A stretch of DNA of 36,316 nt from Promethearchaeota archaeon. Lineage in GTDB: Archaea; Asgardarchaeota; Lokiarchaeia; Sigyniarchaeales; SOKP01. The stretch spans positions 1 to 36,316 of the forward strand of contig JAEOTZ010000028.1 of assembly GCA_016839585.1 (NCBI GenBank), written 5' to 3'. The notes under the pieces were generated by a model. The model saw only the letters and a list, made by a program, of their open reading frames with translations, had not been told where the DNA came from and searched no databases. A program made the position numbers and the translations under genes. Positions 17,171-24,065 of the stretch are shown here, in pieces. Each line of letters opens with the position of its first letter. Positions within the stretch are counted from its first letter, which is position 1.

Positions 17171-17758
17171 TTGATTAACCAACAGTTTTATAAAGAAGGT
17201 CGTGATTTGATCATTGGTAGAACACCTGAAGTCGCTGTAAAAATTAGTAATTCTGGACAAATTGTTAGAAAATTTAAAGATTTATTTAATCAGAATTTAG
17301 ACTTATTCTTAGAGGGTAAGTATCTGAAATTTTTAAGCCATTTTAAGAGAATTAAGGGCGTAGATGAAATACTTTTAAAGGAAGTCTATCAAGATCTTCA
17401 ATTAAAATTTGAACATTTAAAAGATGCGGATCAAGATCATGTAAATATAGTAATTTTATATACAATATTTCTTAATTCTATTATTTCAAGTATAAGGGAT
17501 ATTAACTTTAACGTTGCTCTTGAAGAGATAAGAAAAAGAGTAAGAAAAAAGTTTCAAACCAATAATAAAGTAATTCAAAAGGAATTAGATAATCTTTTCA
17601 TGAGAAACAATAAGAACATCTCAATTTTATACAATATATCTTATCTTGACACTTTAGCGGAATCATTTAATTTTAATAAGGTTGCTCATGTTTGTAAGAT
17701 TCAAAAAAGTAAATTTATTAATCGTATAGTCGATTCTATAATTACTGCAATAATTTAA
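17171..17758 (+). CDS. Hypothetical protein (mainly helical)
   Basis: 195-aa ORF with TTG start filling the gap between flanking genes; no motif recognised. Confidence 0.7.
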   Translation: MINQQFYKEGRDLIIGRTPEVAVKISNSGQIVRKFKDLFNQNLDLFLEGKYLKFLSHFKRIKGVDEILLKEVYQDLQLKFEHLKDADQDHVNIVILYTIFLNSIISSIRDINFNVALEEIRKRVRKKFQTNNKVIQKELDNLFMRNNKNISILYNISYLDTLAESFNFNKVAHVCKIQKSKFINRIVDSIITAII

Positions 17759-17980
17759 ACCTTTTTCGAATTATTTCAAATTCGAGATTAGAATTTTTTT
17801 TTTATTTTAAAAGATAGAGAAATAGATTATAAATCAAAAAATCCGCTTAGATTTCTAAGATCCTTGATTATATGAAAAATGTTATAGTTCATGATAGATT
17901 TGAAGATTTTCCAGTAAAGCCTAAAGAAAAAGGTTGAAATTTCAGAAATGATAAATTTTGTAAAAATAATATGAATTTAT

Positions 17981-18646
17981 ATGTCATATATTTATATGAA
18001 ATCTTTAGAAAAAAAGGCAGAGAAATACGATAAAGGTATAAAAATTTTAACTTTAGGCAGGTTACCAAAAATAAAACAGTATGTTGTTGATAATTATTTA
18101 AAAAAAGATGAAACCTTATTGGATATTGGAATGGGGACTGGAACCTTCGCTATTTTATGTGCAAAAAAAGGTTTAAATGTTGTAGGTATTGACTTTTCAG
18201 AAAAGATGTTAGATATTGCAATAAAAAAAATAGAAATAGAGGATTTAAAAGATGTTATTGAAATTATTAAAATGCCAGTTATTGAATTGGATGAAAAATT
18301 TACTGATAATTCATTTGATAAGGTAACAGCAATTTTAATATTTAGTGAGCTTTATTTTAAAGAACAAGAGTTTTGTTTAACCCAAATTTATCGTATCTTA
18401 AAAGAAAATGGAGAATTTATATTGATTGATGAGTTTAAACCTAAAAGATTTTGGAAAAAGGTTTTATATGTTATAATAAGAATACCACTAACTTTAATGA
18501 CATTTATAAAAGCACATATAACTACTAAATCATTAAAAAATATCGAAAAACGGTTGGAAAATCATAGTTTCATAATTAAGGAAGAAAAATTATATTTACT
18601 AGACTCTTTAAAAATAATACGTTCAAAAAAAATTATTACAAAATAA
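17981..18646 (+). CDS. cpaM: Class I SAM methyltransferase, corrinoid-protein-associated (CpaM-like)
   Basis: Motif I LLDIGMGTG, GIDFS..ML, R.LK.NG; N-terminal YMK.LE....YD.GI..LTLGR; 12 bp upstream of the HgcAB-like gene. Confidence 0.75.
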   Translation: MSYIYMKSLEKKAEKYDKGIKILTLGRLPKIKQYVVDNYLKKDETLLDIGMGTGTFAILCAKKGLNVVGIDFSEKMLDIAIKKIEIEDLKDVIEIIKMPVIELDEKFTDNSFDKVTAILIFSELYFKEQEFCLTQIYRILKENGEFILIDEFKPKRFWKKVLYVIIRIPLTLMTFIKAHITTKSLKNIEKRLENHSFIIKEEKLYLLDSLKIIRSKKIITK

Positions 18647-18658
18647 TTTAGAGTATGT

Positions 18659-19753
18659 ATGAGCTTAAAATCTAAATTGAAATTATTTGGAGCTTATTTT
18701 TTCAGGTGGTTTGGCTTTTCAATTGAACCAGATCTTAGAATAATTGGAAATCCTAATCGTGATAGCCCAGTATTACTAACTTGTAATTTTAATCTAACTG
18801 TAAATAGAGTATTAAAGGAGATAAAGGATTTAGATTGTTATTTATTAATTGCTCCTTCAAATGGAATAAATGTGTGGTGTGGAGCATGCGGTGAGGATTT
18901 TAAAACAGATTCAGTAATATCTATTATTAAAACAAGTGGTATTAACGAGCTTGTATCCCACAGAACTTTAATATTACCTCAATTAGGCGCTCCAGGATTA
19001 GAGCCTATTGAAATTAAGAAGAAAACAGGATGGAGTGCTAAATTTGGTCCTGTATACGCTAAAGATATTCCTGCATATGTGCAGAATAATTTTGAGAAAA
19101 TTGATATATCTCAAAATGAAGTAAGATTTCCAATTTCTAAGAGGCTAGAAATGGCAAATTTATATTTGTTTAGTCTATTTATTTTATTTACCACTATTTA
19201 TTGGATTACTTCTATCTTTTTACCATTTCTGGATTTTTTTCTCTATTTAGATAGTATTTTAATTCTTATATTAGTCATTAATGGCTCATTATTGATTCTT
19301 CCGAGTTTTAAAACAAAGACAGGAAAAGTAAAAGTATGGATTTACGAAGTAGTTGTTTTAATATTGATAATATCTTTTAATCTTTTTTTATTCTATAATA
19401 TTGTCTTCTTAATTTGGAATATTATTTTATCGATTCTTATCACCTTAGTTATGTCAGAAGATTTTCATGGGCTTACTCCAATATATAAAAGTGAATTAGG
19501 AGAAAAAACTTGGAAAAAAGGAAAAAATAAAATGAAATTTCTTTTCGGTGAATATAAATTACAGCCTTATGGAACAATTAATATAGAAAGAGAAAAATGC
19601 ATTGGTTGTAAGATGTGTATTGAAGTATGTCCTAGAAATGTATACTGTTTTAAAGCGAGAGAAAATAAAGCAGATTTAAAATATTCCGAGAAATGTATTA
19701 ATTGTAATGCATGTGTAAAGCAATGTTTAGCTCATTGTTTGACGATTATCTAA
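18659..19753 (+). CDS. HgcAB-like fusion: CdhD/HgcA-type corrinoid domain + ~4 TM helices + 2x[4Fe-4S] ferredoxin
   Basis: GNP..DSPVLLTCNF.LTV, GINVWCGACG, HRTLILPQLGAPG, GW...FGPVYAKDIP; TM block; CIGCKMCIEVCP and CINCNACVKQCL. Confidence 0.9.
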   Translation: MSLKSKLKLFGAYFFRWFGFSIEPDLRIIGNPNRDSPVLLTCNFNLTVNRVLKEIKDLDCYLLIAPSNGINVWCGACGEDFKTDSVISIIKTSGINELVSHRTLILPQLGAPGLEPIEIKKKTGWSAKFGPVYAKDIPAYVQNNFEKIDISQNEVRFPISKRLEMANLYLFSLFILFTTIYWITSIFLPFLDFFLYLDSILILILVINGSLLILPSFKTKTGKVKVWIYEVVVLILIISFNLFLFYNIVFLIWNIILSILITLVMSEDFHGLTPIYKSELGEKTWKKGKNKMKFLFGEYKLQPYGTINIEREKCIGCKMCIEVCPRNVYCFKARENKADLKYSEKCINCNACVKQCLAHCLTII

Positions 19754-19886
19754 ATAAATATATTCAAATGGAATTTAGACTTTATTGATTATAAAATCCT
19801 CTTCTTTTTATGTTTGTTGATTATATTTAAAATCATTTAAGACTTTATGATAAATGTAAATGATAATAATACCATAAGTGATATCA

Positions 19887-21797
19887 ATGTCGAATGACTT
19901 TAGTGAAGAAATTTCATCATTACTGAACAAATACAGCAAGAAGAAAGTTTCAACAGATGTAGCAATTAAAAAATATATTTATCCAGGAAATCGTATTTTT
20001 ATTGATTCTGGTTGTGCAGAACCCATTGATTTAACTGCTAAGTTAATAGAACTTGGTCCTGAACTCCCAGATGTAGAAATTCTGCATTTTCTTAGCCTTA
20101 GTGATCTTGATTATTATGAAACCGCTGGAGGTATAGAAGATTTATTTAGACACAATGCATTTTTCATAGGAAAATCCCTACGTAAATATATTAAAGTTGG
20201 TCAAGCAGATTATACTCCAATGCTCCTTTCAGAAATACCTTGGTTGTTCAAACTTGGTCGAATGCATCTAGATACAGCTCTTATTCAGGTTAGTCCCCCA
20301 GATAAATACGGCTTCTGTAGTTATGGGATTAATGTTGATATTGTTAAACCTATTTGTGAAGCTGCCGAATTTGTTATTGCAGAAATTAATCCTAATATGC
20401 CTCGCACATTAGGTAATTCCTTTATTCATATAGATGATATAGATGCATTTGTTCTTTCAGATCATGAAATAATTGAATTCAATTATGATCCCCCTGGGGA
20501 AATCGAGAAGAAAATTGCTATATTTGTAGCATCAGTTATTGAGGATGAGTCAACAATTCAAATGGGAATTGGGACTATTCCTAATGCAGTTACTTCAGAA
20601 TTAGGAGTCAAAAAGGATTTAGGTATACATAGTGAGGTATTTTCTGATGGGATTGTAGATCTTGTAGAGCAAGGAGTAGTTACGTGTAAAAAGAAAACGA
20701 TTCATAAAGATAAGATAATTTGTTCTTTTGTTATGGGTTCACGAAGATTGTATGATTTTGTAGATGATAATCCTATGGTTGAATTCCATCCTTGTGACTA
20801 CTGCAACGATCCTTATATCATCAGTCAAAATAAGAAACAAGTAGCAATAAATGCTGCTTTAACAGTAGATCTAACAGGTCAAGTAAATGCAGATTCTCTT
20901 GGTCATCAATTTTACAGTGGAATTGGTGGTCAAGTTGATTTTGTAAGAGGTGCTGGACGTGCAACAGAAGGAAAACCTATTATGGTTGTTCCTAGCACTG
21001 CAACATTGGACGATGGTACTGTTGTTTCTCGAATTGTTCCTTATTTACAATCAGGATCTGGAGTTGTTATTACTCGCGGTGATGTTCATTATATTGTATC
21101 TGAATGGGGCATCGCTTATCTTTATGGAAAAAGCATTAGAGAAAGAGTTCTTGAGATGATTAATATAGCACATCCCGATTTTCGAGAAGGATTATTAGAA
21201 CATGCGAAGAAATGGAAATATGTGTATTCAGACCAGAAATTACCCATATCCATAGATGGAAGAATTGCTGTATATCCTGAAAAATATGAAACAATACTTA
21301 AATTAAAGAATGAAAAAAAAATAAAGATTCGCCCTGTTAAACCGACTGATGAGAGGATGATTCAAGAACTCCATTATTCGCTTGATGAGAAGGATAGATA
21401 TTTAAGATTTTTTACTCCTGTTCATGATTTTCGTCATAAGAAAATGCAACCGTTTGTAACAATCGATTACACTACAGATATGATTTTAGTGGGTGAATAT
21501 AGTGAAGGGGGAGAAGAAAAAATTGTGGCTTTAGGAGCATTTTTTAAAACCGTTCAACCGTCACTAGCAGAAATAGCTTTTGTAGTTCATAAGAACTGGA
21601 GAGGATTGGGAATAACTAGATTTTTACTAAATTATTTAGTAAAAATTGGTCGTGAGCTCAATTATAAGACTTTTGGAGGGTCGATTTTACTTGAAAATAA
21701 ATCTATGCTTCATATAATTGATACATCGGGATATAAATTAACATTTAAAAACATTGAAAGTGGAGTTGCTGAATTTGCATTTAATATCTCAAGATGA
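19887..21797 (+). CDS. Acetyl-CoA hydrolase/CoA-transferase fused to a C-terminal GNAT domain
   Basis: QMGIG.IPNAV, HSEVFSDG, YSGIGGQVDF.RGA, VSEWGIA; then IRPVKPTDE..Y.RFF, AEIAFVV...WRG.GI. ATG at 19887 (ORF track gives GTG 19878). Confidence 0.92.
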   Translation: MSNDFSEEISSLLNKYSKKKVSTDVAIKKYIYPGNRIFIDSGCAEPIDLTAKLIELGPELPDVEILHFLSLSDLDYYETAGGIEDLFRHNAFFIGKSLRKYIKVGQADYTPMLLSEIPWLFKLGRMHLDTALIQVSPPDKYGFCSYGINVDIVKPICEAAEFVIAEINPNMPRTLGNSFIHIDDIDAFVLSDHEIIEFNYDPPGEIEKKIAIFVASVIEDESTIQMGIGTIPNAVTSELGVKKDLGIHSEVFSDGIVDLVEQGVVTCKKKTIHKDKIICSFVMGSRRLYDFVDDNPMVEFHPCDYCNDPYIISQNKKQVAINAALTVDLTGQVNADSLGHQFYSGIGGQVDFVRGAGRATEGKPIMVVPSTATLDDGTVVSRIVPYLQSGSGVVITRGDVHYIVSEWGIAYLYGKSIRERVLEMINIAHPDFREGLLEHAKKWKYVYSDQKLPISIDGRIAVYPEKYETILKLKNEKKIKIRPVKPTDERMIQELHYSLDEKDRYLRFFTPVHDFRHKKMQPFVTIDYTTDMILVGEYSEGGEEKIVALGAFFKTVQPSLAEIAFVVHKNWRGLGITRFLLNYLVKIGRELNYKTFGGSILLENKSMLHIIDTSGYKLTFKNIESGVAEFAFNISR

Positions 21798-22766: not shown

Positions 22767-24065
22767 TTAATGTATCTCTCTATTCTTTAGGTATCTAGCA
22801 ATTTTAAGTGCGATTCTTTCTTGTCGCTTCCAATCACCAAAAGCATATCCACTTGAAATTAGATTTTTAATCTCTTTTTTGTATACTTCACTAAGACTTT
22901 TAACTGATTTTTTCTCAAATGGTGTTTGAGGTAGGGGAATAAAAGAATGAGCATGGATTTTTGCACCCTTTTTTGATAAATCTTTCATCATTTTAATTGT
23001 AAGGTCAATATCTTCATTAGATTCTTCGGGTAATCCAAAAATGAAGTCTACATTAATTTTAAGATTTGATTTAATAGTTAAATTTACAGCGTTATATATA
23101 TCATCGACAGAATGTTCTCGATGACATAAATCCAAAATCTTTTGACTTCCTGATTGTGCTCCAATTGTTATATTATCATTATTGGCATATTTTAAGACTA
23201 ATTCTAAAGTTTCATTTATTACATGCTCAGGTCTTACTTCTGATGGAAAAGATCCGAAAAAAATTCGCCCTTTATTGCCAATTATTTCTCTTATATTTAA
23301 AAGTAAGTCTTTAAGTTTGCCTAAATTCAAAGTCTTACCATCTGTTGAACCATATGAAAATGCATTTGGAGTTATGAATCTTATATCAGAAAGATCTCCA
23401 TAATGATTTTTTAATTCTTGTACATATTTACGGATTACCTCAATACTTCTGTGTCTTGGATACACACCAGAGATATATGGTGTTTGACAAAAATAACAAA
23501 CATAGGGACAACCTCTCGTTATTTCTATTGCCCCTGCCTTAGCATTTTTTACAGGGAATGGAGGATAATCATCTATCTTAACGGGATTTCGCTTACCAGT
23601 AAAAAAATAATCATTTGATTCATTTAAATAAGCAATCCCTTTAATATGTGTAAAATTTTTTCCCATATCTATTTTTTTCAAGAGCTCTATTATAGTTTCT
23701 TCACCTTCACCTACGACAACTATATCAAATCCTAATTTAAGTGTTCCTAAAGGATCACCTGTTGGATGAGGCCCTCCCGCTAAATAAATAACCTTTCTTG
23801 AGTATCTTTTCTTTAGAGTTGTAATTAGATCATAAATTTCCCATAATTGTGTAGTAAAAAAAGATATACCAATAACTACAAGTTTGTGTTTATTAATTAT
23901 ATCTTTCAAACTATGAATGAGCTCATCTCTTTTTGGGATAAAGTATATCGCAAATTGGTCAAAATATGGATCTGTTTCTAAAGCTCCGATTAAAGCGTTA
24001 AAACTGTATATATTATTTTTATAATAATAAACAACAAACGCAGTATCCTGAGACAAATTTTTCAT
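22767..24065 (-). CDS. B12-binding radical SAM protein (TIGR04013/MJ1487-like)
   Basis: N.YSFNAL.GALE, SFFTTQ, AGGPHPTG, GEGE, EITRGCPYVCYFC, FFGSFPSEVRPE, GAQSGS. Confidence 0.9.
   Translation of the reverse strand: MKNLSQDTAFVVYYYKNNIYSFNALIGALETDPYFDQFAIYFIPKRDELIHSLKDIINKHKLVVIGISFFTTQLWEIYDLITTLKKRYSRKVIYLAGGPHPTGDPLGTLKLGFDIVVVGEGEETIIELLKKIDMGKNFTHIKGIAYLNESNDYFFTGKRNPVKIDDYPPFPVKNAKAGAIEITRGCPYVCYFCQTPYISGVYPRHRSIEVIRKYVQELKNHYGDLSDIRFITPNAFSYGSTDGKTLNLGKLKDLLLNIREIIGNKGRIFFGSFPSEVRPEHVINETLELVLKYANNDNITIGAQSGSQKILDLCHREHSVDDIYNAVNLTIKSNLKINVDFIFGLPEESNEDIDLTIKMMKDLSKKGAKIHAHSFIPLPQTPFEKKSVKSLSEVYKKEIKNLISSGYAFGDWKRQERIALKIARYLKNREIH

Follow-up and report, generated by a model that had tools for sequence, protein, structure and literature searches.

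The locus and its two genes

The subject here is a pair of adjacent genes in a Promethearchaeota archaeon (Asgardarchaeota; Lokiarchaeia). They lie on a stretch of 36,316 nucleotides (nt), contig JAEOTZ010000028.1 of assembly GCA_016839585.1, and this whole stretch is called the window below. It is contig C11 of a genome of 3.45 Mb that is 99% complete and has about 30% G+C. The first gene, cpaM, encodes a class I methyltransferase dependent on S-adenosylmethionine (SAM). The second encodes one protein that carries a corrinoid-binding domain, a membrane block and a ferredoxin domain in a single chain (Table 1). An earlier note on this DNA, made from the sequence alone, had described just this arrangement, with the methyltransferase 12 bp upstream, and both the open reading frames and the family matches bear it out. 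The two genes look bicistronic because they share a strand, are separated by a very short gap, are preceded by an AT-rich spacer and are followed by a 124-nt spacer that contains a T-run. No motif could be assigned by reading the sequence of the presumed promoter region (17759-17980). Relatives show either an overlap of the two genes or a distance of less than 60 nt between them.

Both proteins belong to curated families. CpaM scores 237.5 bits against NCBIfam model NF043040 (cut-off 180) over profile positions 1-215 of 216, and it also matches Pfam Methyltransf_11, Methyltransf_25 and Methyltransf_31 (E = 1.6e-17 for Methyltransf_11). The fusion protein scores 367.1 bits against NF043039, named 'HgcAB-like fusion protein' (cut-off 285, E = 1e-109), over positions 5-349 of 350, a match far beyond chance. 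Pfam CdhD covers its residues 22-140 and Fer4 dicluster models cover residues 305-362. NCBI gives the same name to Promethearchaeota proteins that are 60-73% identical to it. Fused HgcAB proteins were described in 2015 (Podar; PMC4646819), and an Asgard clade of fused hgcAB was published in 2023 (Lin et al.; bioRxiv 10.1101/2022.11.21.517362). With curated models and a published Asgard clade in existence, the novelty that had been claimed for the pair cannot be maintained. In the literature collection that was searched, no paper was found that discusses CpaM.

The window pair has a single-chain architecture, a cap-helix cysteine, a transmembrane block, a 2x[4Fe-4S] domain and CpaM directly upstream. 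It is therefore an ordinary member of the catalogued CpaM and HgcAB-like module (NF043040/NF043039; the fused HgcAB of Podar 2015, Gilmour 2018 and Lin 2023), with the same gene order, architecture and cap-helix cysteine and without substantive difference. All that the window copy adds is evidence that a cap helix with two cysteines is a trait of its clade (see below).

Fold and conserved residues

An AlphaFold2 model of the fusion protein, built on a 55-sequence alignment, has a mean predicted local distance difference test score of 95.6 and a predicted template-modelling score of 0.90. Its first part is Rossmann-like and includes a short helix (residues 72-77) on which C74 and C77 lie. Four long helices (residues 159-267) follow, and the C-terminal part is a ferredoxin-like domain. 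The best Foldseek match of the model is the HgcAB integrative model 9a0b. Next come large subunits of the corrinoid iron-sulfur protein (CFeSP; 4c1n, 2ycl and 4djd), with a root mean square deviation of 1.5-1.7 A over about 125 residues, while for the C-terminal domain the matches are HgcB and dicluster ferredoxins. P37, G69, N71, W73, C74, A111, G124 and G130 are invariant in the corrinoid domain. From sequence and model together, the fusion protein is predicted to bind a corrinoid and Fe-S clusters. C74 corresponds by homology to Cys93 of HgcA, which ligates cobalt, and is the presumed cobalt ligand here.

The membrane block that had been read from the sequence corresponds to four confidently predicted helices. 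Because this number is even, the corrinoid and ferredoxin domains should share one side of the membrane. Lys-rich loops at residues 216-222 and 268-300 would fit an N-in, C-in topology and suggest that this side is the cytoplasm.

In CpaM, SAM-binding motif I is intact. In an alignment of 21 CpaM and CpaM-like sequences L47, G50 and G52 never vary, and conservation reaches at least 90% at D48, I49, T53 and G54. The same alignment contains no conserved cysteine. Taken with the intact SAM motif, this argues against direct methylation of a metalloid in the manner of ArsM. An ArsM-type arsenite methyltransferase was considered and rejected on this ground and because the scores against ArsM-related models do not exceed 44 bits, where the cut-offs are 240-575. 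The lack of a conserved cysteine also makes a cofactor plausible as the acceptor, rather than a thiol-bound metalloid, and the sequence is consistent with cobalt as the methyl acceptor of CpaM. A hydrophobic helix of CpaM reads R-[IV]-P-[LI]-x-x-I-T-Y in free-standing CpaM and is replaced by a basic stretch in methyltransferase domains that are fused to HgcA-like proteins. It is possibly a docking or membrane-contact element.

Table 1. Positions of the features discussed. Positions are those of the window unless a contig (C46) or a locus (L number) is given.
Feature	Position	Strand	Description or basis
AT-rich intergenic region 5' of cpaM	17759-17980	+	222 nt; presumed promoter region
cpaM	17981-18646	+	221 amino acids (aa); class I SAM-dependent methyltransferase, 'corrinoid protein-associated methyltransferase'
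SAM-binding motif I, LDIGMGTG (L47-G54)	18119-18142	+	Alignment of CpaM and CpaM-like sequences
Hydrophobic helix of CpaM, about residues 158-180	18452-18520	+	Alignment
Intergenic gap between cpaM and fusion gene	18647-18658	+	12 nt
HgcAB-like fusion gene	18659-19753	+	364 aa; corrinoid domain, four transmembrane helices and 2x[4Fe-4S] ferredoxin domain
Corrinoid-binding (CFeSP-type) domain, residues about 19-146	18713-19096	+	Pfam CdhD, Foldseek
C42 in LLTCNF, end of strand 38-42	18782-18784	+	Clade-specific cysteine
Cap helix NVWCGACG (N71-G78)	18869-18892	+	C74 (presumed cobalt ligand) at 18878-18880, C77 at 18887-18889
Four transmembrane helices, residues 159-187, 193-216, 222-245 and 248-267	19133-19459	+	DSSP on AlphaFold2 model and hydrophobicity scan
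HgcB-like ferredoxin domain	19571-19750	+	Two CxxCxxCxxxC motifs, C314-C324 and C346-C356
C360	19736-19738	+	Extra cysteine four residues past the last cluster ligand
195-aa open reading frame upstream of cpaM	17171-17758
639-aa acetyl-CoA hydrolase/transferase-GNAT protein	19878-21797	+	N- and C-terminal hydrolase/transferase domains, then a C-terminal GNAT domain
B12-binding radical SAM enzyme	22767-24065
ACR3 arsenite-efflux gene	C46 34-1104		281 bits against a cut-off of 282.8
CpaM-like methyltransferase fused to HgcA-like corrinoid/transmembrane protein	C46 1159-2817		552 aa; cap helix NVWCAARG
HgcB-like ferredoxin	C46 2867-3223		118 aa, ending CC-G-A
Two small proteins	C46 3260-3580, 3609-3971		One with a CAC motif
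TetR-family regulator upstream of cpaM, example	L082:885-1493
PEMT/ICMT-like gene adjoining the pair	L018:3767-4240, L060:1501-2070, L075:2422-2970, L093:1765-2268, L118:1212-1433

CpaM accompanies nearly all HgcAB-like proteins

The link between CpaM and the fusion protein extends well beyond the window. In 400 Asgard genomes, surveyed with the curated cut-offs and by comparing the coordinates of the matches, an HgcAB-like gene scores over its cut-off in 80 genomes (at 82 places) and CpaM in 88. CpaM lies directly upstream on the same strand at 74 of the 82 places, and at 14 of these the two form one open frame of about 600-670 aa. Elsewhere CpaM is 1 kb upstream (one place), cut or truncated (two), not to be judged at contig ends (three) or missing (two, G039:C89 and G012:C333). 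The two copies that lack CpaM are Heimdall-side copies, with no CpaM in the available upstream sequence.

A wider survey took one genome per species from all prokaryotes and yielded 80 loci, on which a CpaM profile built in this analysis was run. The archaeal loci include Hadarchaeota, Bathyarchaeia, Heimdallarchaeota, Methanofastidiosia, Desulfurococcales and Thermoplasmata; the bacterial ones include Dehalococcoidia, Desulfobacterales, Myxococcota, Acidobacteriota, Gemmatimonadota, Spirochaetota and Bacillota. Among loci whose cap helix is non-canonical (not ending in GK), 63 of 66 carry CpaM either immediately upstream or as a fusion. At the remaining three it is 1.7 kb upstream, cut off by a contig end, or absent. 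In contrast, it accompanies the canonical NVWCAAGK of true HgcA at none of 14 loci, 13 of them informative. CpaM is thus near-obligatory for HgcAB-like proteins, and true HgcA is without it. The presence or absence of CpaM therefore provides a simple genomic rule for separating non-canonical HgcA-like proteins from true HgcA. Surveys of mercury-methylation genes routinely pick up the HgcAB-like family, which is widespread in archaea and bacteria.

Three architectures were found. The methyltransferase may stand alone before a fused corrinoid-ferredoxin protein, as in the window, it may be fused to the corrinoid protein with the ferredoxin separate, or all three may form one chain. Natural fusions of the latter two kinds are classical evidence that the three functions act together. 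A structure prediction for the complex of CpaM with residues 1-160 of the fusion protein scored 0.33, against 0.51 for a control with an unrelated first chain, and it is not used as evidence here.

Is the pair a mercury methylase?

The best-known relatives are HgcA and HgcB (Pseudodesulfovibrio mercurii ND132; NF040863/NF040864). They share with the window protein a CFeSP-type corrinoid domain, the cap-helix cysteine, a membrane domain and a two-cluster ferredoxin. What if the pair is simply a functional mercury methylase in fused form? The domain set, the Cys-bearing cap helix and the fold are the same as those of HgcA plus HgcB. However, the differences are substantial. HgcA and HgcB are two chains, whereas the window protein is one. 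It scores 160.8 bits against the HgcA model and 47.7 bits against the HgcB model, both below the cut-offs (275 and 99). Its cap helix, NVWCGACG, departs from the HgcA consensus N[VI]WC[AS][AGS]GK and ends in CG rather than GK. The earlier note was right that the vicinal cysteines at the C terminus of HgcB are absent, since no CC follows the last Fe-S motif, and the same is true of all 124 fused relatives that carry C77. This CC is cited as crucial for methylation in work on HgcAB. True HgcA loci, moreover, do without the methyltransferase that is near-obligatory for the window type (0/13).

Phylogeny points the same way. A tree built from 124 corrinoid domains places the window protein within the fused clade, in a small NVWCxACG group and apart from the NVWCAAGK clade, in agreement with Lin et al. 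Nor do the assays favour mercury. The two cultured carriers of fused genes that were assayed, Pyrococcus furiosus and Methanococcoides methylutens, made no methylmercury, as the earlier note had said (published assays; PMC4646819 for P. furiosus). The authors of the P. furiosus work do consider that their negative result leaves an intrinsic activity possible (PMC4646819). Nevertheless, the reading was rejected on the HgcA and HgcB membership tests. A mercury methylase is highly improbable, and mercury is an unlikely substrate of the pair.

A proposed membrane-anchored methyl relay

The reading preferred here, with a probability of about 0.6, is that the pair forms a membrane-anchored relay with three functions that passes a methyl group from SAM to cobalamin to an acceptor. 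It builds on the domain content, the fold, the invariant residues, the near-obligatory partnership with CpaM and the natural fusions, all of which are observed. In such a relay the C-terminal 2x[4Fe-4S] domain would take low-potential electrons in the cytoplasm and reduce the corrinoid in the N-terminal domain to Co(I). CpaM would bind SAM and methylate Co(I), giving methyl-Co(III) with the C74 thiolate as lower ligand. The methyl group would then leave with inverted polarity, as a carbanion or radical and not as CH3+, and would be received, at or within the four-helix membrane bundle, by an acceptor that is electrophilic or for some other reason hard to methylate. Established cobalamin chemistry suggests why such a system might exist. 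A corrinoid and a low-potential ferredoxin should be needed only where plain SAM chemistry is insufficient, so that inversion of methyl polarity would be the simplest rationale.

One clue to the methyl source comes from the characterised sister system. Purified HgcAB takes its methyl group from SAM by way of methyl-Co(III) with Cys ligation (PMC11588087), which supports SAM as the source in the HgcAB-like family too. Another parallel is CFeSP, whose large subunit (AcsC/CdhE) has the same corrinoid fold (1.5 A over about 125 residues) and which works with the methyltransferase MeTr. The logic is shared: a corrinoid carrier, a separate methyltransferase and an Fe-S reductant. However, CFeSP is soluble and has no Cys ligand. 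Its methyl group comes from methyl-tetrahydrofolate or -pterin and goes to the Ni centre of acetyl-CoA synthase, unlike that of the relay proposed here. The earlier note had already put forward such a relay. That part of it gains from the pairing, the natural fusions and the SAM donor of purified HgcAB (PMC11588087), and it is a reasonable reading, though not a new one.

Several points weigh against the relay. The chemistry of each step, and the direction in which the methyl group moves, are inferred for all family members alike. Purified HgcAB is methylated by SAM without a separate methyltransferase (PMC11588087), so that CpaM may not be needed as a loader. Two Asgard copies, those named above, have no CpaM upstream. 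The acceptor is not indicated by context, no window neighbour being conserved with the pair in 20 other Asgard loci. Finally, neither CobS (PF02654) nor CbiB/CobD (PF03186) has a match in the 99%-complete genome, so that the organism probably has to import complete corrinoids.

In a different reading SAM methylates the corrinoid directly, and CpaM is a second methyltransferase in its own right, whose target is the same substrate or pathway and not the cobalt. Purified HgcAB indeed requires no extra methyltransferase for the SAM half-reaction (PMC11588087). The nearest named families of CpaM, moreover, are small-molecule and lipid methyltransferases (UbiE/MenG, 74.6 bits; PmtA, 57 bits). Even so, this is rather unlikely. 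CpaM accompanies almost every non-GK HgcA-like protein and no true HgcA, and it is fused to the corrinoid domain in several lineages. This pattern fits a role that true HgcA has dispensed with. In addition, no other conserved pathway genes occur near the pair.

Alternatively, CpaM and the ferredoxin domain might serve only to reactivate the corrinoid. Methionine synthase (MetH) offers the analogy, being repaired reductively by means of SAM and flavodoxin. The catalytic cycle would then use another methyl donor, or would not be a methylation at all, for example a Co(I)-dependent dehalogenation. Dehalococcoidia carry the pair, and a 2026 preprint reports dechlorination of CCl4 by heterologously expressed HgcAB (10.64898/2026.04.26.720869). 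However, no MtrH, MeTr or MtaA-type methyltransferase and no dehalogenase partner recurs at the 87 loci compared, and pure reactivation is accordingly an unlikely role.

The two-cysteine cap helix

The cap helix of the window protein maps exactly to the place where it had been read, and its CxxC (C74 and C77) and the further cysteine in LLTCNF (C42) are all present. C360, near the C terminus, had not been mentioned. How widespread are these residues? Among the 120 best database matches the cap motif is NVWCGACG in 98, NVWCASCG in 12, NVWCAACG in four and NAWCGACG in two, so that C77 is found in 116. Broader sampling gives a different picture. When 112 aligned full-length close relatives are set against 32 aligned representatives of the family (clustering at 50% identity), C74 and all eight cysteines of the clusters prove universal (112/112 and 32/32). 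C77, in contrast, falls from 108/112 (96%) to 4/32 (12%), C42 from 91/112 (81%) to 5/32 (16%) and C360 from 111/112 (99%) to 7/32 (22%); C60 is found in 111/112 and 23/32. By motif, C77 occurs in 10 of 55 fused representatives. The NVWC[GA][AS]CG cap helix, C42 and C360 are thus the norm of the Asgard clade to which the window protein belongs.

The state of C77 changes at least seven times on the corrinoid-domain tree, and the residue also appears in some bacteria (Desulfobacteraceae and Thermoanaerobaculia). A clade-level residue that changes so often is not part of the core chemistry of the family. The earlier note had suggested that the extra cysteine could bind the substrate. Its restricted distribution and repeated gains and losses do not favour this, and neither does its likely position: one turn past C74, C77 would be on the side of the corrin that has the lower ligand, facing away from the methyl group, where ligation or redox control is more plausible than substrate binding. 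Probably C42, C77 and C360 tune the ligation or redox state of the cobalt rather than bind substrate.

More specific proposals can be made for these thiols. Perhaps C42, C77 and C360 form a site for a soft metal or metalloid that replaces the CC tail of HgcB. They are nearly fixed in the clade and rare in the family as a whole, and C77 has arisen repeatedly in archaea and bacteria. However, no covariation of C77 with C42 or C360 could be shown on the tree, which offers too few independent contrasts for a powerful test, and C77 appears to lie on the ligand side of the cap helix. Window-type loci also lack a metal or metalloid context, unlike a paralogous module on contig C46 of the same genome (described below). 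Such a site is quite improbable. Much the same can be said of a broader proposal, that the C74/C77 CxxC with C42 and C360 is either a redox switch moving a thiolate on and off the cobalt or a place where thiols hold a soft metalloid; this is a long shot, but if it were true the Asgard clade would differ in its chemistry from all other HgcAB-like proteins.

Gene neighbourhood

None of the window neighbours recurs beside the pair in the 20 other Asgard loci. Those checked were a 195-aa open reading frame, the acetyl-CoA hydrolase-GNAT gene, M48 and U32 peptidases, a MutY-like gene and the B12 radical SAM gene. The 195-aa frame was considered as a regulator and set aside, having no Pfam match, Atlas features below the useful threshold and no conservation beside the pair. 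The acetyl-CoA hydrolase/transferase encoded downstream is a 639-aa protein that ends in a GNAT domain.

Across the 87 loci a few gene types do recur. A TetR-family regulator is directly upstream of cpaM in 16, mostly bacterial, and ABC ATPases are scattered near the pair in 10. An integral-membrane methyltransferase of the PEMT/ICMT family (PF04191, E = 1.9e-14) is near the pair in eight loci from several phyla, adjoining it in five and lying at a distance of 1.5-6 kb in the remaining three. Such a neighbour might suggest a lipid-like substrate; the window itself has no such gene. No ArsR- or MerR-type neighbour is found among the recurrent gene clusters beside the pair. Together with the TetR neighbours, this weakly favours a small organic or lipophilic compound over a metal ion as the acceptor.

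A further module on contig C46

At least four proteins of corrinoid type are encoded in the genome. Two are HgcA-like, one is a CdhE-like CFeSP (contig C61) and one is the B12-binding radical SAM enzyme of the window. The second HgcA-like protein belongs to a further SAM-corrinoid-ferredoxin module on contig C46 (3997 bp). It has the same three functions as the window pair, a CpaM-like methyltransferase, a corrinoid/transmembrane protein and a ferredoxin. However, the methyltransferase is fused to the corrinoid protein, the ferredoxin is separate and keeps a C-terminal CC, and the cap helix is NVWCAARG. This arrangement is widespread in Asgard archaea and was found in 20 of 20 other Asgard loci examined. 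In a quick tree the fused methyltransferase-corrinoid type is sister to true HgcA (Shimodaira-Hasegawa-like approximate likelihood-ratio support 90). An ACR3 gene lies within about 4 kb in five of 13 loci of the same order, that of the window genome included. The organism thus keeps two distinct SAM-corrinoid-ferredoxin modules, and only the one on contig C46 stands in a metalloid context.

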